Part shown: positions 2,368 through 62,577 of the stretch, piece after piece | How positions within the stretch are numbered: position 1 is the stretch's first letter | Layout: each line of letters begins with the position of its first letter | Source: Oscillospiraceae bacterium | Lineage (GTDB): Bacteria > Bacillota > Clostridia > Oscillospirales > JAAYXM01 | Direction of reading: 5' to 3' | Assembly (NCBI GenBank): GCA_017559985.1 | Contig: JAFYPW010000036.1 | Coordinates: 23,295-87,294 of the forward strand | Length of the DNA: 64,000 nt | Program-made: the position numbers and the translations under genes | Notes under the pieces: generated by a model | What the model was told of the DNA's origin: nothing | Database searches by the model: none | The model's input: only the letters and a program-made list of their open reading frames with translations

Positions 2368-2424
2368 TATAAGTTATGTTTTGCAAAAACACAAGAAAAG
2401 AGCAGAATTTTTTGTGTATATCAT

Positions 2425-2454
2425 TTGACAGAGAGAAGTTTTTTGGTGTATAAT
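2425..2454 (+). promoter_or_regulatory. Sigma-A-like promoter for alaS
   Basis: TTGACA (2425-2430), 18-nt spacer, TATAAT (2449-2454), with TG immediately upstream. It lies about 70 nt before the alaS ATG. Confidence 0.5.
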
Positions 2455-2524
2455 GTAATCTGTGTAAAAATGACCGCAAAAAGTTATTGAAAATTCATAT
2501 AAATCGCATTGGAGGTTTTTTGAA

Positions 2525-23045: not shown

Positions 23046-24632
23046 ATGAGAGTATCAGAAAAACAAAGTTTTCTGCACGGTGCCGCAGTTCTTGCCGTGG
23101 CGGGAATTGCCGTTAAGATAATCGGCGCATTCTACAAAATTCCGCTTGGTTCGATTCTGGGCCCTGTGGGTATGGCAAATTTTTCGGTCGCGTATAACAT
23201 TTATGCGCTTCTGTTTGTTCTCTCAACTGCCGGTGTTCCGGTTGCGGTTTCAAAGCTCGTGGCTGAAAGCCTTGCCTGTGGCAGGGTGAGCGAGGTCTGT
23301 AAAATTTACAGGGTTTCCTATCTTGCATTTGTTTCGGTCGGTGCGGCAGGATTTGTTCTGATGTTTGTCTTTGCAAAGCCGATTGCAACAATAATGGGAA
23401 ATGCGGATGCTGCGGCAGCAATCCGCGCAATTTCTCCCGCTGTTTTGTTTGTCTCAATGTCTGCGATAAACCGCGGATATTTTCAGGGACAATCCAATAT
23501 GTATCCGACTGCGATTTCTGAGGTGGCGGAAGCTTCGGGAAAGCTTGTTTTCGGAATAGGAGCTGCGTGGTATCTGAAAACACGGGGTTTTTCCGACGGT
23601 ATGGTTTCAGCCGGCGCCGTCTGCGGCGTTTCTGCGGGTGCGCTTCTTTCGGCACTGTATTTTGCAGCAAAAAGGGATAACGGAGAACAAAGCAGAAACA
23701 CCCGGACACAGAGCTTTCCGGAAATTCTTTTAAAGCTTATAAAGCTTTCCGTGCCGATAACGCTTGGTGCGGCTGTAATAAGCCTTACGAATGTTATAGA
23801 TTCCGCGCTCGTTATGAATTTGCTGGGAGAAAGGCTTTTTTCAAGGGAGCGCGCAAAATGGCTTTTTGGGGCATATAACTATGCGACAACACTCTTTAAT
23901 CTTCCTTCTGCGCTTGTCGCAACACTTTCCGCATCTCTTATACCTACGCTTTCGGGCGCTCTTGCAAAGCGGGAATTCACATCACTTTCAAAGGGTGTGA
24001 ATACGGGTATAAAGCTTGCGATGATGCTTGCCGTGCCTGCATCTTTTGGTATGTCATATCTCTCGGAGGGCATCATAGAGCTTTTGTACGGCGGTGGGAT
24101 AGATGCAGAATGTATAGCGGTGTCGGGAAAGCTTCTCGCCATCGTTTCGGCGGCGATAGCGCCGCTCTGCCTTGTAACTGTCACAAGCTCTGTTCATCAG
24201 GCAATGGGGAGCGCGGACATCCCCGTGAAAGCGATGCTTTGCGGCTGTGTTGTCAAAATAATTTCCAACCTTGTCCTTGTGTCAGATTCAGACATAAACA
24301 TATACGGAGCGGCGTGGAGTACGGTTCTGTGCTATTTTACAATAGCTGTGTTCAACGTTTCTTCACTTAAAAAATATTCTTTTATAAAACTGAAAAAATC
24401 CGATGTTTTTCTTGCACCGCTCTTTCTTGGGATTGTAACTTTTTGCGCGGCAACAGTAGCAAAAAAATGCGCATTTTCTGTTTTTGATAGCAAAATCACC
24501 ACTGTTCTGGCAGTCGCTTCCGGTGCCGCGGCGTGTGTCGCGTGTGCTTTCTTGACCGGCATTGCCGCAAAAGATGATTTCAAGGTTACTTTTAAGCGAA
24601 AAAAAGTATCTAAATTTTTAAATAATGATTGA
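23046..24632 (+). CDS. MOP-superfamily flippase (YabM/SpoVB/MurJ-like polysaccharide biosynthesis protein)
   Basis: 528 aa, polytopic. N-terminus 'FLHGAAVLAVAGIAVKIIGAFYKIPL' is typical of this family. Its position upstream of mazG matches B. subtilis yabM. Confidence 0.8.
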   Translation: MRVSEKQSFLHGAAVLAVAGIAVKIIGAFYKIPLGSILGPVGMANFSVAYNIYALLFVLSTAGVPVAVSKLVAESLACGRVSEVCKIYRVSYLAFVSVGAAGFVLMFVFAKPIATIMGNADAAAAIRAISPAVLFVSMSAINRGYFQGQSNMYPTAISEVAEASGKLVFGIGAAWYLKTRGFSDGMVSAGAVCGVSAGALLSALYFAAKRDNGEQSRNTRTQSFPEILLKLIKLSVPITLGAAVISLTNVIDSALVMNLLGERLFSRERAKWLFGAYNYATTLFNLPSALVATLSASLIPTLSGALAKREFTSLSKGVNTGIKLAMMLAVPASFGMSYLSEGIIELLYGGGIDAECIAVSGKLLAIVSAAIAPLCLVTVTSSVHQAMGSADIPVKAMLCGCVVKIISNLVLVSDSDINIYGAAWSTVLCYFTIAVFNVSSLKKYSFIKLKKSDVFLAPLFLGIVTFCAATVAKKCAFSVFDSKITTVLAVASGAAACVACAFLTGIAAKDDFKVTFKRKKVSKFLNND

Positions 24633-27758: not shown

Positions 27759-28853
27759 ATGCGAAAACGAGGAATGTCGGGTCTTGCCGTTGTGTTTTTC
27801 GGCGCGGCAATAGTGATAAAGCTTTTTTCAGCCGATGGCGGAGTGTCGGGCGACATAAAAAACGCGATCAGGACCGTTGCGCAGGACGAACGGTTTGTGG
27901 GGTACGCAGTGGCAGGGGAAACACAGCTTTTTGAAAATGACTCAAAGGAAGAGCTTATAACCTTTTTTGCGCGTGAAACTGCCATCAGACCGTCGGAAGA
28001 AGAGCCTGTGCGCGAAGCGCTTACCGTCTGGGAATACACACCCGGCGGAGAGAAAAAGGAGAAAATATATCCGATTGAAAATATTACGATAAGCCCGAAA
28101 TCTCCGGAAGGTTATGTGAAATATAATAACATCTGGGTCAAAAACGACAGCACCAAGGGGATTGACCTTAAATGGCTGCTTTCTGCAAAGCTTCCGTTTA
28201 AGCTTATAGGGAAGGGACCCCATGTCCTGATTGTTCATACACACGCAAGCGAAAGCTATTTCCCGCAAGGAAAGGATACATATGCTCTGACGGATGTTGA
28301 AAGGACTGGCGATAAAAATTACAATGTCATCCGTGTGGGTGACGAGCTTGAAAAGACGCTTCTTGATTGCGGCATTTCTGTACTTCACGACCGCAATATC
28401 TATGACAGCCCGTCGTATAACGGGTCATATACGCGGACTCTTGATGCGATAGGTCAGGCGATAAAGAAAAACCCGTCAATCAAGGTTGTGATAGATGTTC
28501 ACCGCGATGCGATGACCACGGACGAGGGAGTAAAATACCGCACAGTTGCAAACATAAACGGAGAGCAGATGGCGCAGATGATGCTTGTTATGTCAACGGG
28601 CGAGAGCGGGCTTCCTCATCCGGACTGGGCGGAGAATTTAAAGCTTGCGGTAAAGCTTCAGAACGCTATGGCAAATAAATACCCAAACCTTATGCGGCCG
28701 ATAAATCTTCGCAAAGAGCGATTTAATATGCATGCAACGAAAGGGTCAATGCTCGTCGAGGTGGGAACGAGCGCAAACGCACTTTCCGAGGCGCTTGCTT
28801 CCGTTCGTCTTCTTGGGTGCGAACTTGCAGAAATACTGAAAACCGCAAAATAA
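27759..28853 (+). CDS. spoIIP: Stage II sporulation protein P
   Basis: 364 aa with an N-terminal TM anchor and 'VLIVHTHASESY', 'YNGSY', 'VIDVHRDA' motifs of SpoIIP amidase/peptidase. Confidence 0.85.
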   Translation: MRKRGMSGLAVVFFGAAIVIKLFSADGGVSGDIKNAIRTVAQDERFVGYAVAGETQLFENDSKEELITFFARETAIRPSEEEPVREALTVWEYTPGGEKKEKIYPIENITISPKSPEGYVKYNNIWVKNDSTKGIDLKWLLSAKLPFKLIGKGPHVLIVHTHASESYFPQGKDTYALTDVERTGDKNYNVIRVGDELEKTLLDCGISVLHDRNIYDSPSYNGSYTRTLDAIGQAIKKNPSIKVVIDVHRDAMTTDEGVKYRTVANINGEQMAQMMLVMSTGESGLPHPDWAENLKLAVKLQNAMANKYPNLMRPINLRKERFNMHATKGSMLVEVGTSANALSEALASVRLLGCELAEILKTAK

Positions 28854-31716: not shown

Positions 31717-31761
31717 CCAAAGAAAAAGACGCCGTATGCCTTTCAGGCATTCAGCGTCTTT
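31717..31761 (-). terminator. Terminator after the RimK-like pair (overlaps the last codons of the CDS)
   Basis: Outer stem AAAGACGC (31725-31732) / GCGTCTTT (31754-31761) with inner ATGCC/GGCAT pairing, followed on the minus strand by TTTTCTTTGG. Confidence 0.55.
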
Positions 31762-32549
31762 ATAATATAATCGAGATACAGCGAAAGTATGTCGATGTCG
31801 TGCGTTTTATACAGCATACGCGCACCCACGACGTCTTCGATTTCATTTATGACGGGTTTTCCCTCGTGATACATAATATCAATTCCGCAAAGACCAAAAT
31901 CAAAAAGAGTGCAGACTTTGTGTATGAGAGCGGTTTCTTCGTCTGTCAGTACGGCTTTTGCTACCGTGCCACCGAGCGAAAAATTGCTGCGGAAATCGTC
32001 CTTTGCGGTTCGGAGAACGGCCGCGACGGGTTCGTTTGCGATAACGTAAACACGCATATCGCGTCCTGCTTCCGTTGCGAGGGGCTGAATGACATATTCG
32101 TCCGGCAAAATAGCCTCTCGCGCTTTTTTGTAATCCTCATCGTTTTCGATGAGGCGGACGTTCTTTCCGCCGTGACCCGAGCAAGGTTTTATGACTTTCG
32201 GATACTCTGTAATTTCCGGAGGCACATCCGTCGCCTTTGCTGAAATCCAGGGAATTACCGGTATGCCGTTTTTGTGGAGATATTCATAAGTTCTTGCTTT
32301 GTTGTTGCATATTGAAGAAACATGGAAGTTGTTGAATGTGCGGATGTTTCTGTCTTCTAAAAGCTTTGTTATGTCCGGGCGCATTGCACGAACTATTGCA
32401 AAATCGGGGTTCTCCGCGGGCAAGGGCTCTTCGTCGCATATGATAAGCGAAAAGTCAATCCCGCGCTCGCGCCCGTAGCGCATATGCATAGCTATAAAGT
32501 CATTATTGCGCTCTTTTCCTTCTCTCTCGTAAATAAGCCAAGCCTTCAA
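31743..32549 (-). CDS. RimK-family ATP-grasp ligase (paralog 2)
   Basis: 268 aa with a TTG start 7 nt after AGGTGA. ATP-grasp core 'YPKVIKPCSGHGGKNV', 'YVIQP', 'DFRSNFSLGGT' and 'GIDIMY..GKPVINEIE'. Confidence 0.8.
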   Translation of the reverse strand: MKAWLIYEREGKERNNDFIAMHMRYGRERGIDFSLIICDEEPLPAENPDFAIVRAMRPDITKLLEDRNIRTFNNFHVSSICNNKARTYEYLHKNGIPVIPWISAKATDVPPEITEYPKVIKPCSGHGGKNVRLIENDEDYKKAREAILPDEYVIQPLATEAGRDMRVYVIANEPVAAVLRTAKDDFRSNFSLGGTVAKAVLTDEETALIHKVCTLFDFGLCGIDIMYHEGKPVINEIEDVVGARMLYKTHDIDILSLYLDYIIKTLNA

Positions 32550-32556
32550 GATAAAA

Positions 32557-33420
32557 TCACCTGCATTTGTCGGTTATATGCTGTGCTATGAGATCTGCAA
32601 GGTCAACGCCTGTGCAGTCGTATGTGCTTTTAAAATGTGCATTTGAGTTAACCTCGCATATGAGCGGGCCGTCTTCACCAAAGAGAATGTCAATACCTGC
32701 AAAATCAAGCCTGAGTCGCTCCGTTGCCGCAAGTGCAAGTTCACATTCTGCATCAGTGGGGGAATACGGCAGAGTGCTTCCGCCGAGGGTAACATTGCTT
32801 CGGAAATCTCCGCATTTACTCTCACGGAGCATCGCGGCGCAAACCTTACCGCCGACTACATTTATGCGGATGTCGCGCCCGAAGCTCGTTTTTACAAGCT
32901 CCTGAAAAAGAAGCGGTGAGCGCTCGTGCTGCTTTATTATGTCGCGAAGCTCCGCCATATCGTGTGCAAGATATACCTGCGCACCGAAAGAGCCGAAAGA
33001 TTCCTTCACGACAAGCGGGAAGCCAAGGAGAGAAGTTACTTTGTCAAGGAAAGAAAGGTCTGAAAAGCCGATGTTCGGAAAGGTTTTCGGAGCAATGACG
33101 GTTTTTGGCATCGGAAGCCCTTTCAGTGCAAGGTGCATCTTCGCCTTGTCATCGCATTTTTCAATAGCATCTGCGCTGTTGAAAACGGGAACACCGGTTT
33201 CTTCTATCGCCCGAGCAAGGAGGATATCCTTATCCCAGAAAAGAACGAAACCGGGCTTTTCGGGAAACGGGATTTCCTCACTGACGGGATGCGCAAGGGA
33301 AGCATTTGTGCAGAGTAGGAGCCTTGCGCCGTGGGCATCAAATCCTTTTGAAAGGCGGGAGTAAATATCGGAAAATTTTCCGTTTTTTAAAAATTCGTTG
33401 ACAACAAGTATACCTGTCAT
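32557..33420 (-). CDS. RimK-family ATP-grasp ligase (paralog 1)
   Basis: 287 aa with 'FPLVVKESFGSFGAQV', 'FQELV', 'DFRSNVTLGGS' and 'GIDILFGEDGPLICEVNSN'. Its ATG lies 3 nt after the permease stop. Confidence 0.8.
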   Translation of the reverse strand: MTGILVVNEFLKNGKFSDIYSRLSKGFDAHGARLLLCTNASLAHPVSEEIPFPEKPGFVLFWDKDILLARAIEETGVPVFNSADAIEKCDDKAKMHLALKGLPMPKTVIAPKTFPNIGFSDLSFLDKVTSLLGFPLVVKESFGSFGAQVYLAHDMAELRDIIKQHERSPLLFQELVKTSFGRDIRINVVGGKVCAAMLRESKCGDFRSNVTLGGSTLPYSPTDAECELALAATERLRLDFAGIDILFGEDGPLICEVNSNAHFKSTYDCTGVDLADLIAQHITDKCR

Positions 33421-33423
33421 GGT

Positions 33424-34695
33424 CTAGCACCACAACGCCCAGACGAGGATATAACCTGCAAGAACTGCACAGAGTGTGAAAGGAATACCGATTCTGAAAA
33501 AGTCGCGGTTTTTGACTTCATATCCCGCATTTCGCAAAATGCCGATACCTGTAATGTTTGCAGATGCGCCGATGGGAGTGAGGTTTCCGCCGAGTGTTGC
33601 GCCGACAAGAAGTCCGAAAGCCAGAAGGTGAGGCTCGCAGCCTATCTGAGGTGCGATGCTTGCAACAACGGGGAGCATTGCCGCAACGTAGGGTATATTA
33701 TCAATAAACGCGGAGAGAAGAACCGATGCCCATACTATAAGAGTGTATATTACAAACGGATTGCCACCGCCTATTTTTACAAAGAATTCGCTGATTGCCT
33801 TTATAACACCAAGCTCTTCGATACCTGCGATGACAACGAAAAGACCTGCGAGGAGACCGAGTGTATAAAAGTCAATTTCTTTGAAAACTTCTTTGAAAAT
33901 CCCACGGTTCTTTTTGAGAATGAGCTCGCGGAAAATGCCTATAAACATAAGTGCTACGCAGATATATCCGTTTGTTTCCGCGGGTTTGAGCTCTGCCGGG
34001 ATAAACGATGCGATGATGAGAAGAACGATTGTGCCGACGAGAAGAACCGTAGGGAAGAAATCCTTCACCTCTGTCTTTGTGGAAACGGAAATCGGTGCGG
34101 TTTCCTTCCTGAAAAGGAAGAGGAGGATGCAGGCGGAGGCAAGTGCGCCTACCTGGACAACCCAGAAAAGACCGGGACGGCCTGCATACCAGAAGAAGTC
34201 TAAAAAGTTCATTTCAAGCTCGCCTGCAAGCATAATCGAGGTTGTGTCACCCACGAGCGTTGCCGCGCCCTGGAGGTTTGAGGAAACAGCGATTGAAATG
34301 ATAATCGGAACAGGGGATATTTTGAGCTTCTTTGCAATGTCGAGTGCAACGGGGGCAATCATAAGAACGGTTGCCACATTATCGACAAAAGCAGAAACTA
34401 TACCTGTAAAAAGAGCAAGACAAACGATAGCCCATTTTACATTCGGAACCTTTTCGATGATGAAATCGGAAAGTCTGTCGGGCATTTTGGACTGGATGAA
34501 AAGATAAACCGTGCCCATCGTGCCGGCAATCATCATAAGAACGTTCCAGTCGATGGCATAGAAGACCTCGGGAAGACTGAATTTTGCGATGATTGCAAAA
34601 ACAACAGCTGCGGCTATCGCTATGTACGGACGGAACTTCTGGAATGAAAGCAGAAGAACATAGGTGATTGCAAAAATTATAAGTGCGGGAAGCAT
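33424..34695 (-). CDS. ArsB/NhaD-superfamily (CitMHS/SLC13-like) anion permease
   Basis: 423 aa, polytopic with two-fold internal organisation. 'TLVGDTTSIMLA' and 'ATLGGNLTPIGASANI' hairpin-type motifs are typical of this superfamily. Confidence 0.78.
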   Translation of the reverse strand: MLPALIIFAITYVLLLSFQKFRPYIAIAAAVVFAIIAKFSLPEVFYAIDWNVLMMIAGTMGTVYLFIQSKMPDRLSDFIIEKVPNVKWAIVCLALFTGIVSAFVDNVATVLMIAPVALDIAKKLKISPVPIIISIAVSSNLQGAATLVGDTTSIMLAGELEMNFLDFFWYAGRPGLFWVVQVGALASACILLFLFRKETAPISVSTKTEVKDFFPTVLLVGTIVLLIIASFIPAELKPAETNGYICVALMFIGIFRELILKKNRGIFKEVFKEIDFYTLGLLAGLFVVIAGIEELGVIKAISEFFVKIGGGNPFVIYTLIVWASVLLSAFIDNIPYVAAMLPVVASIAPQIGCEPHLLAFGLLVGATLGGNLTPIGASANITGIGILRNAGYEVKNRDFFRIGIPFTLCAVLAGYILVWALWC

Positions 34696-53500: not shown

Positions 53501-54060
53501 AAATACGCCGCACGAGAGCGCCAAGACCGTCTTTTATGCTCAAAAAGGAGCTTTCTGCGGCAGAACGTGGAATTGCTCTTCATATGGCAATGCAATTCTG
53601 CGATTTTTCAAAATGCACCACGCGTGACGGGGCAAAGGCAGAGCTTTTAAGGCTTTATGAGCAGAAGTTTCTGACGAAAAGACAGTATGAAGCTGTGTCT
53701 GACGAGAAGATATATAATTTCGTGAATTCCGATATAGGCCGCGAGATGCTCTCGGCAAAAAAGATTTCGCGTGAATTCAAGTTCTCGCTCCTGCTTCCGG
53801 CAGAAGAGGTTTTCTCCGGCACGGAGCTTTGCGGTGAAGATGTTCTTGTTCAGGGCGTAATTGATATGTACTACGAAACTGATGAGGGCATAACAATCGT
53901 TGACTTCAAGACAGACAGAAAAAAGCCCTCCGGGAGAACACTTCTCAAATACAGTGAGCAGCTTTATACATATCGCCGTGCACTTTCCGAGATAACCGGA
54001 AAGACTGCCGCAAGAGCGCTTCTTTATCTTGTTATGACAAATGAATATATAGAAGTGTAA
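50530..54060 (+). CDS. addA: ATP-dependent helicase/nuclease subunit A (AddA)
   Basis: 1176 aa with UvrD/Rep helicase motifs ('VSAAAGSGKTAVLVER', 'LLDEFQDSN', 'VGDVKQSIYGFR', 'TVHKSKGLEFPVVF') and a C-terminal PD-(D/E)xK nuclease ('GVIDMYY..IVDFKTD'). Confidence 0.93.
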   Translation: MAEMKWTDDQLCAIKARGSSLLVSAAAGSGKTAVLVERLLRRIEEERLDITDFLVITYTKAAASELRRKIGDALYERIAKKPGAKHLKRQIALVGSARISTVHSFCTWLLRNYAENDDIAGGFRVLDESEAEMLLMDTLSEMIEEKYNSRDKGFLALADFMSDSRSDKKLSPAVLELYHKSMSHPYPEKWISEVGRSYEIGDVNNIKETPWGKESYLRAEKLVSECEEMVCLMESDTQRVVSSGDLYDEVLRELRQSIGRIKSSDWDEFRENARSFCVPKLPSSKNVADKTFTERIKALTKVIKEKTGEISEKIMLAESEVLLSEIRALSPIMKELSELSAELYERFEKEKLRLGTLDYSDLEHQTINLLIESYDEKNDTVIPTELAETISADFCEILLDEFQDSNIIQDIIFRAISRKEKNIVMVGDVKQSIYGFRLADPSIFMKKYRTFAPFAEAKGDAPRRVNLSKNFRSRREILDASNSVFSRIMTEELGGVDYNEEHMLIPRDEIPHSDREDMKCEFCLIDVDKNGEESELSAQARFTARKIREMVDSGFEVCDKNGNLRPVTYRDFAILLRSVSTSAEGYEAALEEYGIPFFAPIKGGLLQKNEVNTILSYLTVIDNPTSDIPLLATLRSPLFAFSADELCEMRIAGKGTLISAMEKLSREETETGRKCSEFLKTTAYLRARSRGMRISKLIWEVYNKTNALGLFGAMPYGEERQENLIEFYKSAEGLETLGYSNLYKFLSHISSLAERGGDIAVSSENAHNAVTIMTVHKSKGLEFPVVFVGNAFKNFNLKDLQKGVLIHPKLGVGLNFRDEEKKLECSTLMREAIKLRLLEDMKSEEMRLLYVALTRAREKLFITGAKKDAARMIQKVAASNSYEKLDKANLVSRNDAELWFMLPLFRTMTGSDIFAYGDYIINRDEALAGLCAYVEKDEREKESRVNEKQTADGVRAVREPEFLDYKYKEATRTPSKITATGILAATEKGVEIRRTRAPRPSFMLKKELSAAERGIALHMAMQFCDFSKCTTRDGAKAELLRLYEQKFLTKRQYEAVSDEKIYNFVNSDIGREMLSAKKISREFKFSLLLPAEEVFSGTELCGEDVLVQGVIDMYYETDEGITIVDFKTDRKKPSGRTLLKYSEQLYTYRRALSEITGKTAARALLYLVMTNEYIEV

Positions 54061-54065
54061 AAAAA

Positions 54066-54097
54066 CACAGCACCGCCGTCGGTGCTGCGTTTTTTTT
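54066..54097. terminator. Bidirectional terminator between addA (+) and the CDF gene (-)
   Basis: Stem CAGCACCG (54068-54075) / CGGTGCTG (54080-54087), flanked by A7 and T8 runs. Confidence 0.75.
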
Positions 54098-55262
54098 ACA
54101 TAACCGTTCTGTCTATTGTGGGCTTTACTATGAATGACTGGTCGATTGCGGAAACCGCTGTTATGACCATATCGGAGACGATGCTGTCCGGCGCGGGGTG
54201 TGCAATAGGGACAACAACGTCAAACAGGATATTTTTCAAATCACCGTTTTTTATAACTCGGAAGTCGTGCATTGTGAAAGAAGCATCAAGCTTTTTTAAA
54301 GCATCGGCAACAAGTTTTGAAATACGCCGGACTTCTTCGTTTTCCACTTCGAGCGGGTCGAGATGAATTGTGATTTCAATTCCGAGCTTTTTCGAAAGCT
54401 CGCTCTCAATGCGGTCTATAAGCTCGTGGCTTTCGAGAATGTCTTCCGAAGAGGAAACTTCCGCATGGAGAGATGCGAAAACCTTTCCGGGCCCGTATTC
54501 GTGAACTATCAGGTCGTGTATACCGAGGATTTTGTCGTGTCCCGCGACCGTGCTGTATATGTCTCTGACAAGGTCCGGGTTTGGGGTTGTACCGAGAAGC
54601 GGGGTTAACGTGTCGCGGATTATTTTTATTCCCGACCACATAACAAATGCACTCACAAGAATGCCGATATATCCGTCAAGCGGGAAAGCTGTAAATTTTG
54701 AAAGAACTATTGAGATGAGCGTGACTGTTGTGGAGAACGCATCGGATATGCTGTCTGTTGAAACTGCCTTTATCGTCGAAGAGTTGATTTTCGTGCCGAG
54801 CTTTTTGTAAAAGAAGGCAAGCCAGAGCTTTGTTAAAACAGAGACGGCAAGACCTGTCGTTACAAAAACGGAGAAATTTGAGCTTCCCCTGGAAAAGATT
54901 TTTAAAAGTGACGTTTTTCCCACCTCAAAGCCTGCAAGAAGAACGAGGAAGGCGACGACAAGGCCGCAGATGTATTCAATCCTTCCGTGACCGAAAGGGT
55001 GTTCGCGGTCAGCAGGTTTCGAAGAAAGCTTAAACCCGATGATTGTAACGATGTTTGAAGCACAGTCGGATAAATTGTTGACGGCATCTGCCGTAACGGC
55101 AATGCTGTTTGCAAAGATGCCGAGTATGAATTTAAGCGCGGCAAGTATAATGTTGAATACAATGCCGACGGTGCTTGAAACAACACCGTAACGCGTTCTT
55201 ACAGTCGGGTTTGTGACATCTTCATAATTCTTTATGAAAAGGCGGATGATAAAATTTGTCAT
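54096..55262 (-). CDS. Cation diffusion facilitator (CDF) family divalent-metal efflux transporter
   Basis: 388 aa with six TM segments, 'SIAVTADAVNNLSD', 'HPFGHGRIEY', and a cytoplasmic C-terminal domain ('IHDLIVHEYG', 'FTMHDFR'). Confidence 0.88.
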   Translation of the reverse strand: MTNFIIRLFIKNYEDVTNPTVRTRYGVVSSTVGIVFNIILAALKFILGIFANSIAVTADAVNNLSDCASNIVTIIGFKLSSKPADREHPFGHGRIEYICGLVVAFLVLLAGFEVGKTSLLKIFSRGSSNFSVFVTTGLAVSVLTKLWLAFFYKKLGTKINSSTIKAVSTDSISDAFSTTVTLISIVLSKFTAFPLDGYIGILVSAFVMWSGIKIIRDTLTPLLGTTPNPDLVRDIYSTVAGHDKILGIHDLIVHEYGPGKVFASLHAEVSSSEDILESHELIDRIESELSKKLGIEITIHLDPLEVENEEVRRISKLVADALKKLDASFTMHDFRVIKNGDLKNILFDVVVPIAHPAPDSIVSDMVITAVSAIDQSFIVKPTIDRTVM

Positions 55263-55289
55263 CTGAAAATATCATATCCTAACAAAAAG

Positions 55290-56648
55290 TTATTTTACCA
55301 AAACTGCACGAAGATGGGGGAAAACATCCCTGCGCGAAAGTTTGCCCGGATTGATTGTAAAGGAATAGGTGGGGGCAAGGCTTCGCAAAAATGCAGAGAG
55401 AAGCTCTCCCGTAACCGTTGTTTTATACGAAAGCTTTTCGCTGTTATCACAGTTGATTATACCGAGCTCTGCTGCTTTGCAGAAAGCTATGAAATACGGA
55501 TGGTTCTCGCCCACACCGTATCTTTTTGCACACTCAGCCAAAAGAGCACCTGTCTCAAAGCCGGAATCAACAAATTTGCGGTAGGACGTGAGAATATCCT
55601 GCGGCGGAGTGCAGGTTACAACCAACTCACCAAATGTCATGGCACGCTCGGGGTGAAGAGTGTTGTTCTTGTAAGCGACGGTGAAACCTGCGTTTGCGAG
55701 AGCCTGTGCGTCTTCGTTCACACAGTCGGCAAACTGCGAAAGCGAAAGAAGCTCGGATACAGAAATGACATCATAGCCGTGTTTTTTGAGCAGGTCGAGC
55801 TGAAGCGGAAGAGCTTCCGCAACGGGCGTATGGCGTGACATACTGTACCCGTCCTTCTGGAAAATTATCTGTCCGTTCAAAGAATCGGGGTCTTCGGAGA
55901 GGGCACGCGAAATCGGCTCTACCATAGCATCGATGTCTTTTTTGAAATCGCCCGTCGAGGGAAGCCATCCGCCGCCGTCAAAGCTTGCGGCGAGGTAGTT
56001 ATACCCTGCATAGCGATACGCATCGTAAGATGTCTTGCCGTCCGGGATTTTGTCAACATAGTGCGGAGGGCGCGAAAGGCGCATTTTATAACCGTGTTCT
56101 TCAAGGAGAAGGCTGTCAAGCTCCATAATGTCGGAGATGACTTCGTGAATATTGTTAAAACACGCGCGGGCACCGTAAACAAGCTTTAAATGGCCAAAGA
56201 GAATGTGGCGGTAGCCGTGGTTTGTGATTTCGTGACCGCCTGAAAGTATGCGGGAGATAAGGTCGGACTTGTTTTTTGCACCTGCGCACAAATCGCGGTT
56301 TATGTCCGGGTAGTGGTCATACCTGACGCCACCCCAGGAAAAAGAGCCGTGGACACCCGCCTCGTCGGGATAGTTGTGCTCTGTCGTGCCTATAACATCA
56401 AATGTGCCCTTTGCTCCGAATTTTTCGAGTGTCTTCAAGAGGTGGAGCGTTAAGCCGTCATCGGAAATCTTCGGGTTTGTCTCCGTGTCGGTAGGACCGT
56501 CGTCAAATGTCATTGCACATACACGACGGTCAGTGAGCGGGAAAACGCGTTCAATGCGGCGAACCGGTGTGATGTATTCACAGTCGCGGCTTTTCTGGTA
56601 TTCTTTGAGAATGTGTTTTGCACGTCTTGCAAGGTCGTAAAGTATCAT
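55290..56648 (-). CDS. NodB-fold polysaccharide/carbohydrate deacetylase-family protein with an extra C-terminal domain of about 150 aa; no signal peptide
   Basis: 452 aa with NodB motifs 'CAMTFDDGP', 'GHEITNHGYRH' and 'RPPHY'. The N-terminus 'MILYDLARRAKHILKEY' is not a signal sequence. Confidence 0.8.
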   Translation of the reverse strand: MILYDLARRAKHILKEYQKSRDCEYITPVRRIERVFPLTDRRVCAMTFDDGPTDTETNPKISDDGLTLHLLKTLEKFGAKGTFDVIGTTEHNYPDEAGVHGSFSWGGVRYDHYPDINRDLCAGAKNKSDLISRILSGGHEITNHGYRHILFGHLKLVYGARACFNNIHEVISDIMELDSLLLEEHGYKMRLSRPPHYVDKIPDGKTSYDAYRYAGYNYLAASFDGGGWLPSTGDFKKDIDAMVEPISRALSEDPDSLNGQIIFQKDGYSMSRHTPVAEALPLQLDLLKKHGYDVISVSELLSLSQFADCVNEDAQALANAGFTVAYKNNTLHPERAMTFGELVVTCTPPQDILTSYRKFVDSGFETGALLAECAKRYGVGENHPYFIAFCKAAELGIINCDNSEKLSYKTTVTGELLSAFLRSLAPTYSFTINPGKLSRRDVFPHLRAVLVK

Positions 56649-57436
56649 TATTTATTCTCCTCCGGCGTTGTGTCTATATAATGACCTTCATATTTTTTGC
56701 AGAAAACAGATTTTAATAACATATATAGGTGAACAAAGTAACTTTTTAAAAGTCTGCCGTAAAGTTTTTTGCAACGGTACATATATCTTTTCCCGCGCAA
56801 AACGTCAAACGGAGATGCAGCACCCGCAAAAACGCGCCCGCGACCGGAAAGAAGCTCGGCCTTGAGTTTGTCTTCAAAATCGGGCTCGGACATAGCATAT
56901 TCCCGCAGGTCGCACTCCCAGAAGGTTGTGCCAACTTCTTCGGGAATATGCGCATCGCTTCCTGCTGAAAAAGGCAATCCCAATTTTTTACACAGTTTTA
57001 AAGCGTCACGGTTTGCGTTTGTCTTTCGTGAGTGTACGACTCGTGAATTGAAAATTTCTATTCCGTCGATTTCGTCAAAAAGGGCATCGGGACGGGGACG
57101 GAAAGGAGAAAACGGATGCGCAAGAAAAACCAGCGCGCCCTGGTCATGTGCCGCTTTTACGATATCGCGCCAGTAAAACCTGCCGTATTCGTCACGCGAG
57201 AGGGCTTCGTTTACGTGCTCTTTCTGGAAATAGACTATAAGATGTCCGACATCTGTTGAGAATTCACAGGCGTGGATTATGTAGAAGTTTTCGCGTTCGC
57301 GATGGTGGTGGAACGCGTTGTGGTCAGCGATGGCAACGCCTGAAAGTCCTGCGCGGCGGGCGGCTTCCACAAGGTCGTCAGACCTCATCCTTGAATCATA
57401 TGATAGATTTGTGTGAACGTGTAAATCGAATTTCAT
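56648..57436 (-). CDS. PHP-domain metal-dependent phosphoesterase
   Basis: 262 aa with 'MKFDLHVHTNLSYDS', 'AIADHN', 'LAHPF' and 'GSDAH' PHP metal-ligand motifs. Its TAA overlaps the deacetylase ATG (TAATG). Confidence 0.85.
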   Translation of the reverse strand: MKFDLHVHTNLSYDSRMRSDDLVEAARRAGLSGVAIADHNAFHHHRERENFYIIHACEFSTDVGHLIVYFQKEHVNEALSRDEYGRFYWRDIVKAAHDQGALVFLAHPFSPFRPRPDALFDEIDGIEIFNSRVVHSRKTNANRDALKLCKKLGLPFSAGSDAHIPEEVGTTFWECDLREYAMSEPDFEDKLKAELLSGRGRVFAGAASPFDVLRGKRYMYRCKKLYGRLLKSYFVHLYMLLKSVFCKKYEGHYIDTTPEENK

Positions 57437-57441
57437 ATAAA

Positions 57442-58599
57442 TTACCTCACGATACTGTCGGTTTTCTTTAACGCCTGCTTAAAGTATTGGAGTGATGAGC
57501 GGATGTCGGATATATCAAAAACACCGTCGGAAACGAAAGGGTTTAAAAGTCCCGAAAGAAAAGAAACGGCAAATTTCAATTTATGCTCACTCTTTTTCAG
57601 ATATGCAGGAAAAGAGAGAAGGTCCTGAATTATAAATCTCATCTTGTGGCCTGTTTTGTAGCTTGGCGAGAACGAAGAAAAAGGCTTTGCAAGCTCTCCG
57701 CGGGCGGCGCGGTAAAGGGCAAATGGAATGTTGCAGCCTGAATTTGGCGCGAGGGCAGAGCTTCCCCAGAAACGTGGGTTGATTTCCATAAGGTAAAATC
57801 CGGTTTCGGGAGTGCCTTTAAACTCAACCATTGCAACGCCTTCCCAATGCAATGTGCGCAAAAGCTTTATCGCATATTCTGCAAGTTGCGGAGAGTCAAC
57901 GCTCTCACAGAAGCACGACGGACCGCCGCTTGACGGATATTCGCGTATTCTGCGGTGGCAGAAAACTTCGAGCGGCTCGGAGTTTTTGTCAAAGACGCAG
58001 GAAACGCCGTAGCCATCGCCGGTGATATATTGCTGAACGAGAATTTCCTGACCGTATTGTTCAAAAACCGTATAGGTTTTTATGAATTCTTCCTTTGAGG
58101 AGACAATGCTGTATCTCTTTTCGGGCGGAAGCCCCAGCATCTCACCGAGCGGGAGCTTTATTACAGAAGGGTAAGTTATTCTCTGTGAAAGGGAGAGGAC
58201 ACTCTCGCCGTCTGCCTTGAATGTTGTTTCCGGAACGGGAACGCCTGCTTCTTTTGCAAAGGGGATGAGGCGCGATTTGTTGTTTGCAAGTTCGATTGAT
58301 GAGAACGGCGGCAGCGCGCAATCACAAAAGCCGAGAACTTCGTCACGGTTTTCACACAGCGTAAGGAGGGTGGAAATGCCGACCGGTATCACAACCGGGC
58401 GCTCATCAAGATCAGAACACAAAGACGAAAGCTCTGAAAGGAACAGTGCGGTATCTGTATCTGCGTCGGGGAGCAGAACATTCCTTTTTGAATATTTAGA
58501 ATAAAAACCCAATGCCGCCTTTGTATCACATACGTCTCTCTCGGTGCAAACAACAGGGACACCGCTCTTTCCGAGAGCACGGATGGCAGGAAGACTCAT
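57442..58599 (-). CDS. ATP-grasp ligase (COG3919-like 'predicted ATP-grasp enzyme'); the true start is probably upstream at a non-canonical codon (ATT at 58635)
   Basis: 385 aa from the first ATG. ATP-grasp core 'YPSVIKLP', 'LVQQYITG' and 'VAMVEFK..FYLMEINPRFWGS'. The frame stays open to the TGA at 58650-58648 and encodes 'INSAIVTDVRYR' with no ATG/GTG/TTG. Confidence 0.8.
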   Translation of the reverse strand: MSLPAIRALGKSGVPVVCTERDVCDTKAALGFYSKYSKRNVLLPDADTDTALFLSELSSLCSDLDERPVVIPVGISTLLTLCENRDEVLGFCDCALPPFSSIELANNKSRLIPFAKEAGVPVPETTFKADGESVLSLSQRITYPSVIKLPLGEMLGLPPEKRYSIVSSKEEFIKTYTVFEQYGQEILVQQYITGDGYGVSCVFDKNSEPLEVFCHRRIREYPSSGGPSCFCESVDSPQLAEYAIKLLRTLHWEGVAMVEFKGTPETGFYLMEINPRFWGSSALAPNSGCNIPFALYRAARGELAKPFSSFSPSYKTGHKMRFIIQDLLSFPAYLKKSEHKLKFAVSFLSGLLNPFVSDGVFDISDIRSSLQYFKQALKKTDSIVR

Positions 58600-58670
58600 G
58601 CGGTAGCGTACATCCGTTACAATAGCAGAATTAATGACAGATACACCTCACCTATTATATATTGATTTTA

Positions 58671-58699
58671 ATTATATAACATATGTAAGAACTTATCAA
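58671..58699 (-). promoter_or_regulatory. Near-consensus sigma-A promoter for the ATP-grasp/PHP/deacetylase operon (minus strand)
   Basis: On the minus strand: TTGATA (58699-58694), 17-nt spacer, TATAAT (58676-58671). Confidence 0.55.
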
Positions 58700-58827: not shown

Positions 58828-59892
58828 ATGGAAAAAGTAAAAGTGCTTCTTATAGGTGCAGCGTTCTCTGCTGACTTGCATGCTGAGGGTTATGCAAGAT
58901 GCCGCGATGTTGCAGAACTCGTCGCTATCTGCGATAAAGACACAAGCCGTGTAAAAGACCTTGCTGACAGGTACGGCTTTACTGATTACCAGGTTTATGA
59001 TGATATGTTCAAGGCTATTGATGAAGTAGAGTGTGATGTTGTTGACATCTGCCTGCCCAACTTCCTTCACGTTGAAGCGGCACTCCGCGCATTTGCAAAG
59101 GGACGCCACGTCATCAGCGAAAAGCCGCTTGCTACAACGGTAGAAGATGCGGAAAAGATGATAAACGCAGCAGAGGCAGCAGGAAAAAAGCTCTACTATG
59201 CAGAAGACTGGCTCTTTGCGCCGGCTCTCAACCGTGCTCTTGAAGTTATAAATGAAGGCGCAATAGGAAAGCCGATGTTCGTCCGTGCACGCGAGTGCCA
59301 CTGTGGCTCACACTCACCGTTTGCACAGACAATCAAGTTCTGCGGCGGAGGTTCTATGGTACATCTCGGCGTTCATCCGGTATGCTTTATGCTCGCGCTC
59401 AAAAACAATCGTTGGACAGAAGTTGTTGCTATGACATCCGGCGGCGGAGAGGAAAATCTCTGGCACAAGACAATGGAAGGCGAAGACTGGGGTGCAGCTC
59501 TTATGCGTTTTGAAGACGGCACAACAGCGCTTTTAGAGGCAAACTACGTCACAACAGGCGGTATGGAAGACGTTATCGACTTCTACGGCGACAATGGTTG
59601 TCTCCACGTTGACCTTACTTTCTCATCGGCATTGAACCTTTACTCAATTCCGGGTGCATCATACACTGTTGAGAAGGCAGAGGTAACAACAGGCTGGTCA
59701 AGACCGGCAGTTGACGAGAAGTTCAACCTCGGCTATGTAAACGAAATCCGTCACTTTATGGAATCTGCCCGCGACAACAAGGACGCAAAGGTAGGTCTCC
59801 GCGGTATAGACGGTTACGAAGCAATCCGTGTTATCAACCTTATCTACAAATCAGCCCGTGAGGGAATTGCAATAAAGAACGATAGACTTTAA
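58828..59892 (+). CDS. Gfo/Idh/MocA-family NAD(P)-dependent oxidoreductase
   Basis: 354 aa with Rossmann N-terminus 'VKVLLIGAAFSADLHAEGY', 'LPNFLH' and the 'VISEKPLA' family motif. SD GAGGAGG lies 8 nt upstream. Confidence 0.88.
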   Translation: MEKVKVLLIGAAFSADLHAEGYARCRDVAELVAICDKDTSRVKDLADRYGFTDYQVYDDMFKAIDEVECDVVDICLPNFLHVEAALRAFAKGRHVISEKPLATTVEDAEKMINAAEAAGKKLYYAEDWLFAPALNRALEVINEGAIGKPMFVRARECHCGSHSPFAQTIKFCGGGSMVHLGVHPVCFMLALKNNRWTEVVAMTSGGGEENLWHKTMEGEDWGAALMRFEDGTTALLEANYVTTGGMEDVIDFYGDNGCLHVDLTFSSALNLYSIPGASYTVEKAEVTTGWSRPAVDEKFNLGYVNEIRHFMESARDNKDAKVGLRGIDGYEAIRVINLIYKSAREGIAIKNDRL

Positions 59893-59934: not shown

Positions 59935-62577
59935 ATGACAGGCAATTTCAATCTTCCGGTAGAGATAGCCGGCGTAAAGTTCCGCAACCCGTTCTATGTA
60001 GCATCGGGTCCGACCACAAAATCAGTAGAACAGCTCAAAAAAATCGAAGAATGCGGCTGGGGTGCAGCTTCAATCAAGCTCACAATCGACCCGGCTCCGT
60101 ATATCAACCGCGTTCCGCGTTATGCAATTTTCAAGGACCGCAACGCTCTTTGCTTCACAGTTGAGAAGCGCCTTAAATTTGAAGAAGGCTTAAAACTCAT
60201 GCGCGATGCAAAGAAAGAACTCAAAGGCGACCTCAAGCTTATGGCAAACATCACATATGCAGGTGATAAGGGCGTAGCAGGCTGGGTAAACATGGCAGTT
60301 GAGTTTGAAAAAGCAGGTGCTGACATCATCGAGCTTAATATGTGCTGCCCGAATATGTCATTTAACCTCCAGCTTTCCCAGGGCGACGACAACGCTTCAA
60401 AAATCAAGACGGGCGCAAGCCTTGGTCAGAACGGTGATGCGGTTGCAGAAATCGTTCGCGAAATCAAGAAGTCAATCTCAATTCCGCTCTTCGTTAAGCT
60501 CACTCCTGAGGGCGGAAGAATTGCACAGATTGCAACAGCTCTTTATGCTGCCGGCGCAGATGCTGTCGGTGGTACATCGAACCGTATGGCTCTTCCACCG
60601 ATCAACCTTGATCATCCGGAAAAGGCTCCGTATCATCTCCAGGACGAGATTTCAATGTCCTGCCACTGCGGTTCATGGGTAAAGCCTCTTGCACTCCGTG
60701 ATACATACGAAATCAGAAAAGTTAACGGTCCCGAGCCGAAGATTATGATGGCTGGCGGTGTCAGAAACTGGCGCGATGCTTGCGAAATGTTCATGGCAGG
60801 TGCAGACCTTGTTGGTATCTGCTCAGAAACACTTATCTCGGGTTACGGCTTCATTGGTGATCTTATCGACGGAGTCCGCGACTTTATGGATAGCCACGGT
60901 TACAGCAACACACGTGAAATGCGTGACCTTATCCTCCCGCACGTCCGCACAGCAGCAGACGTTACACTCTACAAGGGTTATTCTCACGTAAAAGGAACTC
61001 TTGCAGCACCGTGTAAGTCAGCTTGCCCTGCAAACGTTCCGGCTCAGGCATATGTCAATATGATTGCCCAGAAGAACTTCAAGCGCGCATATGAGCTCAT
61101 CGTCGGCGCGGCACCGCTTATGGGTATCTGCGGCGTTGTCTGCTCACATCCGTGCGAACTCTCCTGCACACGCGGCATAACAGGCCGTTCAATCCAGATC
61201 CGTGACCTTAAACGCTTTACTCTTGAACAGGCAAAGAAGAACGGCTGGAAGCCTGACCTCGTCAAGGCAAAGGCAAACGGCAAGAAGATTGCTGTTATCG
61301 GTTCCGGTCCGGCAGGTATCTCTGCTGCATTCTACCTTGCAAAGGCAGGTTACGGCGTAACCGTATTTGAAAAAGAAAATTATCTCGGCGGTATGCTCCG
61401 CTACGCTATACCGAACTTCCGTCTTGACAAGAGCCTCATCGACGATGAAATCGCAATTCTCAAAGAGCTTGGTGTTGAGTTCAAGACAGGCGTTATGTTC
61501 GGAAAGGATATTACGGCAGAAAGCCTTAAAAAGGACGGATTCGACTCCGTATTTATGGGCGTTGGCGCTCAGTCCGGCAGACTTCCGGGCATTCCGGGCG
61601 AGGATGCAAAGGGCGTATTCAATGCTGTTGATTTCTTAAAGGATGTATATGACGGCAAGAAGATTTCTATCGGTGATGACGTAGTTATCCTCGGCGGCGG
61701 CTTCACAGCTGTTGACGCAGCACGTACAGCACGTCGACTCGGTGCAAAGAATGTTTACATTGCTTACCGTCGTACACGCGACGAGATGCCGGCAACTGCG
61801 GAAGAAATCGCAGAGGCAGAGGCAGAGGGCGTAAAGATTATGTACCTTGTTGCTCCGACAGAGATTGTCGCTGCAAACGGCAAGGTTTCAGCAATCAAGA
61901 TGACAACTCAGGTTCTCGGCGAGTCTGACACAAGCGGCAGACGTCGTCCTGAGGCAGTTTGCGGTGCAGAGTTCACACTCAAATGCGACACGGTTGTTGC
62001 AGCTATCGGTCAGGTTCCGTGCAAGTGCGCAACAGACGGTATCAAGACAACAAGAAGTGGCATGATTGCAGTTAACGAGTGGAACGCAGTTGACGAGTTC
62101 ATCTACGCAGGCGGTGACGCAGTTGAGGTCCGCAACATCATCTCTGCTGTTGCAGACGGACGCCGTGCGGCATACTGCATCGACTTCAAGCTTACAGACG
62201 GTAACCCGAACGTTGAGCTTGTAAACATCGCAGACACGGTTGACCCGTATGCTGTTCTCCGTCGCAACCCCTACTTCACAGACAACGGTGCAGTTGACCT
62301 TGATACAAAGGCAGGCGCAGAAAGAGTCAAGAACTTCGACACATTCCGCCGCGTAATGACAGAGGATGAGGCTGTCAAGGAAGCATCCCGCTGCCTCAAA
62401 TGCGGATGCGGCGAAGGTTGCCAGCTCTGTAAGACAATATGCACAGACTTTGCGGTTGACATTGTTGCTGATGACACAATGCAGATCAACAAAGACAAGT
62501 GCGTAGCCTGTGGTATGTGCTACAACCGTTGCCCGAACGGCAACATCGAGATGATTGATCTCGGAATCAAAGCATAA
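59935..62577 (+). CDS. Multidomain flavo-iron-sulfur oxidoreductase: DHOD/DPD-type FMN barrel, then GltD/PreT-like FeS plus FAD/NAD(P)H module, then C-terminal ferredoxin-type Cys clusters
   Basis: 880 aa. Residues 1-340 carry 'VKFRNPFYVASGP', 'IELNMCCPN', 'PLFVKLTPE' and 'MMAGGVRNWRDACEMFMAGADLVGICS'. Residues 350-760 carry 'CKSACPANVP', 'GICGVVCSHPCELSCTRG', 'KIAVIGSGPAGISAAFYLAKAGYGVTVFE' and 'VVILGGGFTAVDAARTARRLGA'. The C-terminus carries 'CLKCGCGEGCQLCKTIC' and 'CVACGMCYNRCP'. Confidence 0.85.
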   Translation: MTGNFNLPVEIAGVKFRNPFYVASGPTTKSVEQLKKIEECGWGAASIKLTIDPAPYINRVPRYAIFKDRNALCFTVEKRLKFEEGLKLMRDAKKELKGDLKLMANITYAGDKGVAGWVNMAVEFEKAGADIIELNMCCPNMSFNLQLSQGDDNASKIKTGASLGQNGDAVAEIVREIKKSISIPLFVKLTPEGGRIAQIATALYAAGADAVGGTSNRMALPPINLDHPEKAPYHLQDEISMSCHCGSWVKPLALRDTYEIRKVNGPEPKIMMAGGVRNWRDACEMFMAGADLVGICSETLISGYGFIGDLIDGVRDFMDSHGYSNTREMRDLILPHVRTAADVTLYKGYSHVKGTLAAPCKSACPANVPAQAYVNMIAQKNFKRAYELIVGAAPLMGICGVVCSHPCELSCTRGITGRSIQIRDLKRFTLEQAKKNGWKPDLVKAKANGKKIAVIGSGPAGISAAFYLAKAGYGVTVFEKENYLGGMLRYAIPNFRLDKSLIDDEIAILKELGVEFKTGVMFGKDITAESLKKDGFDSVFMGVGAQSGRLPGIPGEDAKGVFNAVDFLKDVYDGKKISIGDDVVILGGGFTAVDAARTARRLGAKNVYIAYRRTRDEMPATAEEIAEAEAEGVKIMYLVAPTEIVAANGKVSAIKMTTQVLGESDTSGRRRPEAVCGAEFTLKCDTVVAAIGQVPCKCATDGIKTTRSGMIAVNEWNAVDEFIYAGGDAVEVRNIISAVADGRRAAYCIDFKLTDGNPNVELVNIADTVDPYAVLRRNPYFTDNGAVDLDTKAGAERVKNFDTFRRVMTEDEAVKEASRCLKCGCGEGCQLCKTICTDFAVDIVADDTMQINKDKCVACGMCYNRCPNGNIEMIDLGIKA

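Follow-up and report, generated by a model that had tools for sequence, protein, structure and literature searches.

What substrate could bring together an ATP-grasp carboxylate-amine ligase, a PHP metal-dependent phosphoesterase-like protein and a CE4/NodB deacetylase is the question raised by a locus of an Oscillospiraceae bacterium (GCA_017559985.1, JAFYPW010000036.1, positions 23,295-87,294, forward strand). The window, i.e. the whole stretch of DNA analysed, is 64,000 nucleotides (nt) long, and its list of open reading frames (ORFs) places the genes of the three enzymes and that of a CDF cation-efflux transporter head to tail, all on the minus strand. The original prediction, made from the letters of the DNA, had assigned the three enzyme families correctly, as confirmed by Pfam and NCBIfam, and had preferred a soluble conjugate of an amino sugar over wall chemistry as the product. 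This preference is weakened by an SLH-like domain at the C-terminus of the deacetylase, by the resemblance of its fold to peptidoglycan deacetylases and by a coupling of the genes to a MurJ-type flippase in one clade. With somewhat less than even confidence, we propose that the trio may act in the cytoplasm on an amino sugar of a wall-glycan precursor, which would be de-N-acetylated and then re-acylated at the expense of ATP, while the PHP protein would remove a phosphate.

Conservation of the trio and its coupling to a flippase

The scan for related loci covered one genome per GTDB species and used two signature peptides of the deacetylase; the best 80 of at least 409 loci were fetched, and their arrangement was determined by tblastn. 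The order ATP-grasp, PHP, NodB on one strand was observed in 67 of the 80, while eight displayed the NodB gene followed by the ATP-grasp gene without PHP, two had NodB alone and three lay on contigs too short for a call. The trio is also intact in four loci reached via other proteins (L081, L082, L083 and L086). Such an arrangement is well beyond chance, and a comparison that could have shown the three genes to be unlinked in relatives has instead shown them to be conserved neighbours.

In an all-versus-all clustering of 912 ORFs from these loci, no clusters other than those of the three enzymes proved to be widely shared, and 97 flanking ORFs, assigned to 149 Pfam families, displayed no recurrent theme. 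Across more than 80 loci, neither the ORF clustering nor the Pfam scan of the 97 flanking ORFs detected a glycosyltransferase linked to the trio, in agreement with the original prediction, and the same two analyses revealed no racemase, transporter or regulator travelling with it. Since the genes around it have otherwise nothing in common, the trio is an autonomous, self-contained module of Clostridia. Its carriers include Oscillospiraceae, Peptococcaceae, Lutisporaceae, three Fusibacter strains, Anaerovoracaceae, Epulonipiscium, Feifaniaceae and Anaerobacterium chartisolvens, and many of the carrier genomes come from gut or rumen samples.

Though species-representative genomes contain at least 409 loci of it and its proteins are unusually conserved, the module has neither a name nor a curated family model. 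None of the three enzymes matched an equivalog of NCBIfam, and a literature search on the trio (ATP-grasp, CE4/polysaccharide deacetylase, PHP, SLH, secondary wall polymer) returned no paper; as in the original prediction, the trio could not be mapped to a characterised locus. A Clostridium thermocellum locus (PMC3880215) was examined and set aside as an unrelated capsule locus with a CpsB-type PHP protein. An anti-phage defence system was rejected for want of support from PADLOC, in which the PHP protein matched Ppl with 15 bits and nothing else was recorded.

Five of the eight PHP-less loci (L020, L023, L025, L031 and L036) read NodB, ATP-grasp and then a MurJ-family flippase (PF03023, 174 bits). 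The genes overlap by as much as 4 nt (L023) or stand up to about 90 nt apart, the gap in L020 being 3 nt. The coordinates recorded for this arrangement are 3019-4563 in L020, 5054-6640 in L023, 7176-8840 in L025, 6615-8093 in L031 and 10453-11991 in L036. In the NodB tree, the PHP-less loci form essentially one clade, plus L035. As judged from this tree, the MurJ linkage arose once or twice and has since been retained despite considerable divergence. The conserved core is thus formed by NodB and ATP-grasp, usually accompanied by PHP. The PHP step is dispensable in this one clade and hence not universal, so that dephosphorylation can no longer be regarded as the obligatory step it was earlier taken to be.

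The deacetylase and its C-terminal domain

The deacetylase gene (55290-56648, minus strand) codes for a protein of 452 amino acids, which matches PF01522 (Polysacc_deac_1) with 42.5 bits against a cut-off of 23.1. Its AlphaFold model has a predicted local distance difference test (pLDDT) score of 93.5, and the top Foldseek matches of the protein, namely PdaC, SpPgdA, BA3943 and BA0150 (E of about 1e-12), identify the peptidoglycan deacetylases as the closest folds. Across 55 homologs, TFDDGP (47-52), H144xxxH148, R193PPH196 and D224...W228 are invariant, as are I261, I262, F263, K265, D266 and G267, and Q264 is present in at least 90%. The family is compact and sharply bounded, as evident from the 113 clusters (50% identity, E<=1e-30) found in an exhaustive hidden Markov model search, compared to 7814 generic CE4 matches; distant members share 43-57% identity.

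CE4 motifs 1-3 (TFDDG, HxxxH and RPP) are intact throughout the family. The canonical catalytic-acid His of motif 5 (hhLxHD) was not found in the aligned proteins, and the end of the strand reads I-I-F-Q-K265-D266 (codon of K265 at 55854-55856, minus strand). On the basis of sequence pattern and secondary structure, the invariant K265 appears to stand in place of the motif-5 catalytic His, and the invariant H196 of motif 3 (RPPH) could serve as a substitute for the absent residue. The catalytic domain is about 100 amino acids above the usual size, with invariant insertions between N92 and G123.

The segment 55749-56648 (minus strand) codes for an N-terminal helix (amino acids 2-21), an Arg-rich linker (PVRRIER) and the catalytic domain (amino acids ~39-300). 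The helix is amphipathic and basic, with a hydrophobic moment (μH) of 0.65, and is followed by the invariant V29-R30-R31-x-E33-R34. Hydropathy analysis detected no signal peptide or membrane segment in the 55 deacetylase homologs, and neither a membrane segment nor a hydrophobic stretch at the N-terminus in the three enzymes and their 44-55 homologs each; the maximum Kyte-Doolittle-19 value of the deacetylase family is 1.37, as compared to 2.43 in the CDF control. All three enzymes are thus predicted to be cytoplasmic, in line with what had been supposed from the window alone.

The C-terminal stretch of about 150 amino acids (~301-452; 55290-55748, minus strand), which had been left unassigned, proved to be SLH-like in profile searches. 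The family profile matches the SLH chains of OmpM (8bz2, 8bys and 8bym; E 1.4e-5 to 2.5e-4) over positions 304-375. The Pfam model SLH (PF00395) reaches 18.2 bits in the window deacetylase, below its cut-off of 20.8, and matches 23 of 55 orthologs with a best E of 1.9e-19; P0075 and P0102 score 32-47 bits with it. The secondary structure of the model places three strand-strand-helix units at 336-346, 411-424 and 436-450, so that the SLH-like module apparently consists of three repeats, the number usual for SLH modules. In repeat 1, which reads T-x-G-E, the second residue varies, i.e. the arginine of TRAE is not conserved, and R-R-D is kept in the last repeat only. Taken together, the sequence comparisons point to a degenerate, probably SLH-derived domain.

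Known SLH domains act outside the membrane and bind wall polymers, and that of OmpM binds polyaminated peptidoglycan (PMC10628300). An SLH-type domain in a leaderless protein is unusual, because the known ones work extracellularly on wall polymers. This type of domain is known only as a wall-polymer binder, and is not known to have a role with soluble metabolites.

The ATP-grasp ligase and the PHP protein

The ligase displays Pfam scores of 38.7 for PF15632 (cut-off 29.1), 30.1 for PF02786 (19.8) and 28.4 for PF02655 (23.2), and its PDB profile matches are generic only (biotin carboxylase, carbamoyl phosphate synthetase (CPS) and 2pn1). No named ATP-grasp equivalog (PRK12767 CPS-like, RimK, Ddl, cyanophycin synthetase or LysX) was matched, the best NCBIfam score being 48.8 bits against a cut-off of 218 and the others falling well short of theirs, and no NCBIfam model naming a D-aspartate ligase matches the window protein.

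The gene was listed at 57442-58599 (minus strand) with 385 amino acids from ATG 58599. Most homologs have 12-15 additional N-terminal residues and share an invariant T-D-V-x-Y-R-M, which the window encodes in frame 5' of this ATG, so that the ORF beginning there loses 12 conserved residues. Between the in-frame TGA (58650-58648) and ATG 58599 there is no ATG, GTG or TTG, and a Shine-Dalgarno sequence, AGGTGAGGTG, lies 8 nt 5' of ATT 58635. The homologous start codon is ATT in the window (58633-58635) and in L001, ATA in L003 and L007, TTG in L004-L006, L013 and L014, GTG in L002 and L012, and ATG in L008 and L011. Because of the N-termini of the homologs, the conserved segment in frame, the lack of a canonical start and the placement of the Shine-Dalgarno sequence, the gene most likely extends over 57442-58635 (minus strand; 397 amino acids), with a weak non-canonical start that recurs among relatives. 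The start at ATG 58599 adopted in the original prediction is accordingly replaced by one 36 nt upstream, and the public annotation of 385 amino acids most likely begins 12 codons too late. The recurrence of weak start codons suggests a low or regulated initiation of translation that would be deliberate.

A metagenomic protein of 702 amino acids, P0354, joins ATP-grasp and NodB in a single chain, the NodB part of which begins at profile position 92 and is devoid of the TFDDG motif 1; this fusion may be a deletion or pseudogene, or an artefact of gene calling. The other long homologs of the ATP-grasp, PHP and NodB proteins contain insertions only and no further domain fusions.

The PHP protein (56648-57436, minus strand; 262 amino acids) scores 36.9 with PF02811 (cut-off 26.4) and 42.5 with PF13263 (PHP_C; cut-off 21.3), and its structure model has a pLDDT of 95.9. 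Residues of metal-ligand type, H6, H8, H39, E58, H107, D161 and H163, together with D4 and N130, are invariant among 44 homologs. Its nearest relatives are mixed, comprising PsfC, BVU_3505, TM0559, RNase AM and the pAp phosphatase Cv1693 (fold matches at E 5e-10 to 2e-6), of which PsfC is a non-hydrolytic enzyme of fosfomycin synthesis, and those nearest by sequence (3e0f, 7ug9 and 2yb1) are nucleotide-acting. The protein reaches 71.8 with the CehA/McbA metallohydrolase model NF038032, under the curated cut-off of 80, and 20-41 bits with the models of HisJ, RNase RNM and nucleoside bisphosphate phosphatase, whose cut-offs are 90-400. These heterogeneous relatives point to no single substrate of the PHP protein.

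A distant homolog of the PHP protein (P0312, 32% identity) is encoded in L085 (3621-6678) amid genes of a UbiA prenyltransferase, DUF362, EamA, GT4, GT9 and Wzy_C. This cluster hints that the PHP branch of P0312 may be able to serve lipid-linked glycan pathways.

Proposed function of the trio

Wall-precursor editing is put forward because the order of the trio is conserved, the CE4 fold is nearest to peptidoglycan deacetylases and its metal-binding and base residues are invariant. The SLH homology, the lack of export signals in 55 homologs and the MurJ coupling in one clade point in the same direction, as do the recurring sigma-A promoters described below and the presence of a distant PHP homolog in a UbiA/GT/Wzy cluster. 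Precedents exist for the ligation as well. AslA/Aslfm, an ATP-grasp D-aspartate ligase, decorates the cytoplasmic peptidoglycan precursor via an acyl phosphate (PMC4155827), and in Campylobacter jejuni HS:2 the ATP-grasp enzyme Cj1438C amidates a sugar of a surface glycan, while a HAD phosphatase dephosphorylates the attached group (PMC11800379).

From this evidence we infer the substrate, the order of the steps and the parts played by the PHP protein and the SLH-like domain as follows. The reactions would occur at the cytoplasmic face of the membrane, the target being an N-acetylated amino sugar of a cell-envelope glycan precursor. The leaderless CE4 enzyme would bind the precursor, with the SLH-like C-terminal module recognising the glycan, and a (pyro)phosphate-lipid or nucleotide carrier could be held by the invariant Arg cluster (R30, R31 and R34) together with the amphipathic helix; removal of the N-acetyl group would follow at the Asp-His-His metal site. 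The ATP-grasp ligase would make an acyl phosphate from a carboxylate, most simply an amino acid or other small acid, and couple it to the freed amine, or, alternatively, it may amidate a carboxylate on the glycan. The PHP protein would take a phosphate off the substrate or off a group that has just been attached in phosphorylated form, a step dispensable in one clade, and the edited precursor would finally be exported via a MurJ/Wzx-type flippase. The logic of deacetylation followed by ligation is taken over from the original prediction as the most economical idea, one which we infer and do not observe.

In its fullest form, the proposal would be that Clostridia, many Oscillospiraceae of the gut among them, possess a hitherto unrecognised cytoplasmic pathway which swaps the N-acetyl group on a precursor sugar of a wall polymer or of peptidoglycan for another acyl or aminoacyl group, by means of an intracellular glycan recognition derived from SLH and a CE4 enzyme with Lys for His; this combination is regarded as rather doubtful. 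If true, an SLH domain would for the first time have a function inside the cell, and the wall would be modified in a way not described before. Editing of wall precursors would mean a hitherto unknown envelope modification in a large part of the anaerobic Firmicutes, with possible effects on resistance to lysozyme and antibiotics, on innate immune recognition and on S-layer anchoring. The trio is assembled from known enzyme families and probably follows a known chemical logic; its most surprising features are the SLH-type domain in a protein without a leader and, in the CE4 active site, the apparent change of His to Lys. Being small and self-contained, the trio is easy to reconstitute.

Several observations weigh against wall-precursor editing. 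The SLH-like domain is degenerate, as evident from the variable Arg of TRAE in repeat 1 and the score of the window protein under the Pfam cut-off, and for this reason it could serve in oligomerisation or be a structural relic. The apparent change of the motif-5 His to Lys makes the catalytic mechanism uncertain, and the enlarged, highly conserved loops of the CE4 domain would suit a small soluble substrate as well. The MurJ linkage is limited to essentially one clade and is possibly a single event. The nearest relatives of the PHP protein act on nucleotides and not on sugar phosphates or, like PsfC, do not hydrolyse. In the same neighbour scans as above, no glycosyltransferase, polyprenyl-phosphate transferase or wall gene was consistently linked to the trio.

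Alternative explanations

The closest competitor is the soluble cytoplasmic aminosugar conjugate itself, a low-molecular-weight thiol, compatible solute or cofactor-like compound, which would be made by dephosphorylation, de-N-acetylation and ATP-dependent ligation of an amino acid, by analogy with mycothiol and bacillithiol but through other folds. We hold it to be improbable, although it fits the chemistry and the cytoplasmic location. Three proteins without export signals or membrane segments, an autonomous, housekeeping-like module with sigma-A promoters, and a set of phosphatase, deacetylase and ligase parallel to the chemistry of MshA2/MshB/MshC would all be expected of such a pathway; the long invariant insertions in the CE4 active site (N92-G123) would suit a small, defined substrate, and the high conservation of the compact family (113 clusters at E<=1e-30) is in keeping with it. 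However, no glycosyltransferase or scaffold-forming enzyme is linked in 84 loci, the SLH-type domain has no known role on soluble metabolites, and the MurJ coupling of one clade, from which PHP is absent, points to a lipid-linked exported product. A soluble glucosamine conjugate, if it were formed instead, could bear on which low-molecular-weight thiols or solutes strict anaerobes use. A target other than a sugar is a weaker rival still and appears very unlikely: the ATP-grasp enzyme would act on a peptide, protein or nucleotide-like molecule, the CE4 protein as an amidohydrolase or deformylase, and the PHP protein as a nuclease-like enzyme or nucleotide phosphatase. The nucleotide-acting PHP relatives nearest by sequence (3e0f, 7ug9 and 2yb1), the top Pfam match of the ligase, ATPgrasp_Ter, whose members are predicted to produce a nucleoside-like metabolite, and the non-canonical motif 5 of CE4 are in keeping with it, whereas all characterised enzymes among the closest CE4 fold matches act on sugars or glycans. 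The SLH homology also argues against such a target, and no ORF for a precursor peptide is present in or beside the operon, whose genes are spaced by 5, -1 and 27 nt and are preceded by 190 bp of promoter.

The other two rivals, likewise weaker, concern the recycling of the cell wall and the spore. In cell-wall salvage in the cytoplasm, imported or turned-over fragments would be recognised by the SLH-like domain, freed of a sugar phosphate's phosphate by PHP and deacetylated by CE4, and the ATP-grasp enzyme would re-ligate a peptide or amino acid in the manner of Mpl. The predicted cytoplasmic location of the three proteins and the combination of a peptidoglycan-deacetylase-like fold with an SLH-like domain would fit this, and an LD-carboxypeptidase (Peptidase_S66) gene lies near the trio in L086 and a phosphotransferase-system transporter in L083. 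These two neighbours are, however, anecdotal and not conserved; no transporter, kinase or etherase is consistently linked, an ATP-grasp ligase is rarely needed in catabolic salvage, and the MurJ coupling favours export over import, and salvage appears unlikely. Leaderless proteins with wall-binding domains are typical of spore coats, and a role in sporulation was hence considered too, in which mother-cell proteins would act on precursors of the spore surface or cortex like the signal-less LysM coat proteins. The host is probably a spore former, because the window encodes a SpoIIP homolog (27759-28853, plus strand) and a Polysacc_synt/MurJ-type, SpoVB-like flippase (23046-24632, plus strand). 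Many carriers belong to spore-forming lineages. Since the promoters here and in many relatives are of near-consensus sigma-A type, and not of sigma-E, K, F or G type, and no sporulation gene is linked to the trio, such a role is given little credence.

Comparison with known systems

Rhizobial NodB/NodA offers a parallel to the proposed wall-precursor editing, in that a leaderless cytoplasmic CE4 enzyme frees an amine of N-acetylglucosamine (GlcNAc) type, which is re-acylated before export, as is assumed for the trio. Re-acylation is due to the acyltransferase NodA with an acyl carrier there and would be due to an ATP-grasp enzyme here, and the Nod system links the NodC glycosyltransferase and the NodIJ exporter, none of which is linked to the trio. 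Rhizobial NodB is a protein of about 200 amino acids without an SLH-like domain and with the canonical motif-5 His, unlike the window deacetylase. The syntheses of mycothiol (MshA2/MshB/MshC) and bacillithiol (BshB/BshC) resemble the trio in combining a phosphatase, an N-deacetylase and an ATP-dependent amino-acid ligation, but with LmbE folds and a CysRS-like or BshC ligase in place of CE4 and ATP-grasp. They also start with a dedicated glycosyltransferase (MshA/BshA) and lack a wall-binding-type domain, whereas no glycosyltransferase is linked to the trio.

SpPgdA, PdaC, PdaA, BC1960 and BA0150, the best structural matches, share the Asp-His-His triad and the catalytic Asp with the window deacetylase. 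Assembled peptidoglycan is the substrate of these CE4 deacetylases, which are exported or anchored in the membrane, whereas the window protein has no signal peptide and differs further in its domain larger by about 100 amino acids, its apparent motif-5 Lys and its SLH-like C-terminus. The SLH domains of Sap, SbsB, SpaA and OmpM are homologous to amino acids 304-375 of the window protein, in which a three-repeat module is apparent; the known SLH proteins are secreted and bind a pyruvylated secondary wall polymer or polyaminated peptidoglycan (PMC10628300), in contrast to the leaderless domain of the window. Cj1438C is a TupA-like ATP-grasp enzyme fused to a glycosyltransferase, and works with a HAD and not a PHP phosphatase and with no deacetylase, unlike the trio. 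AslA is linked to a racemase, and the ligase of the trio to CE4 and PHP genes.

Locus layout and expression signals

Direct reading of the sequence has borne out the four same-strand genes of the original prediction, together with their gaps, overlap, promoter and terminator. A gap of 5 nt (TAA-tttat-ATG) follows the ATP-grasp gene before PHP begins, the stop codon of PHP shares 1 nt with the NodB start (TAATG), which GGAGGAG precedes by 9 nt, and 27 nt lie between NodB and CDF. The precursor of a ribosomally synthesised and post-translationally modified peptide was considered and rejected, as these intergenic gaps leave no room for a short ORF.

The sigma-A-type promoter TTGATA-17-TATAAT (58671-58699, minus strand) matches the consensus at 11 of 12 positions, ranks top among 13 promoter-like matches in the region and is identical in the relatives L001 and L007. 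In many lineages, the DNA upstream of the trio likewise has TTGACA-like -35 boxes and TG-extended -10 boxes. Since these match the type of the window promoter, they argue for a vegetative rather than sporulation-specific expression of the trio, and a sporulation promoter was rejected in favour of the sigma-A type. A second, perfect TATAAT (58659-58654) abuts the Shine-Dalgarno sequence AGGTGAGGTG (58653-58644), the two together occupying 58644-58659 on the minus strand (TATAATAGGTGAGGTG), and L004 and L006 have the same arrangement. Were this TATAAT to serve as a -10 box, the transcript would start inside or just before the Shine-Dalgarno sequence.

A bidirectional intrinsic terminator (54060-54097, both strands) separates CDF from the convergent addA and consists of a hairpin with T-runs. 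Its stem (54068-54087) has eight pairs, six of them G-C, with T8 on the plus strand and a T-run on the minus strand, and is the sole strong terminator, the other terminator-like matches being weak (three G-C pairs) and located within ORFs.

Neighbouring genes

The gene of the CDF transporter (54096-55262, minus strand; 388 amino acids) was earlier counted as part of the operon. It is indeed co-oriented and co-transcribed here across its 27-nt gap, but it adjoins the trio in only six of the 80 loci, L002-L007, which are the closest relatives; it is hence a lineage-specific passenger outside the conserved module. The protein scores 194.1 with TIGR01297 (cut-off 82.35) and 146.2 with PF01545, has Cation_efflux and ZT_dimer domains, and reaches 122 bits against a cut-off of 500 with the MntE equivalog, which it thus does not match. 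Inspection of site A by eye shows NxxxD in transmembrane segment (TM) 2 (ADAVNNLSD) and DxxxD in TM5 (TDSISD), i.e. 'NDDD', unlike the HxxxD of the Zn type. This reading by eye suggests a Mn-type (MntE-like) exporter.

On the other side of the trio lies a divergent Gfo/Idh/MocA oxidoreductase gene (58828-59892, plus strand), which stands beside the trio in eight related loci of the same clade only. It is followed by the gene of an 880-amino-acid fusion of a dihydroorotate/dihydropyrimidine-dehydrogenase-like and a GltD-like part (59935-62577, plus strand), found beside the trio in five related loci. Either clade synteny or a functional link could explain these neighbours.

In L081 (10082-16016) and L082 (10309-16239), which are related metagenomic or metagenome-assembled contigs, the trio is preceded by an RND efflux pair and followed by genes of a TetR regulator, a 1060-amino-acid SLH-subtilase, a UDP-GlcNAc 2-epimerase and a phosphoglucosamine/phosphomannomutase-type protein. 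L037 contains an extra ORF of about 284 amino acids (2258-3112) between the ATP-grasp and PHP genes. A search for plasmid carriage gave no match. Elsewhere in the window, two tandem RimK-type ATP-grasp ligase genes (31743-33420, minus strand; 268 and 287 amino acids) lie directly downstream of a CitMHS-family transporter gene (33424-34695, minus strand) and look like a separate ligase pair, and a UDP-sugar dehydrogenase gene is present at 11234-12460.

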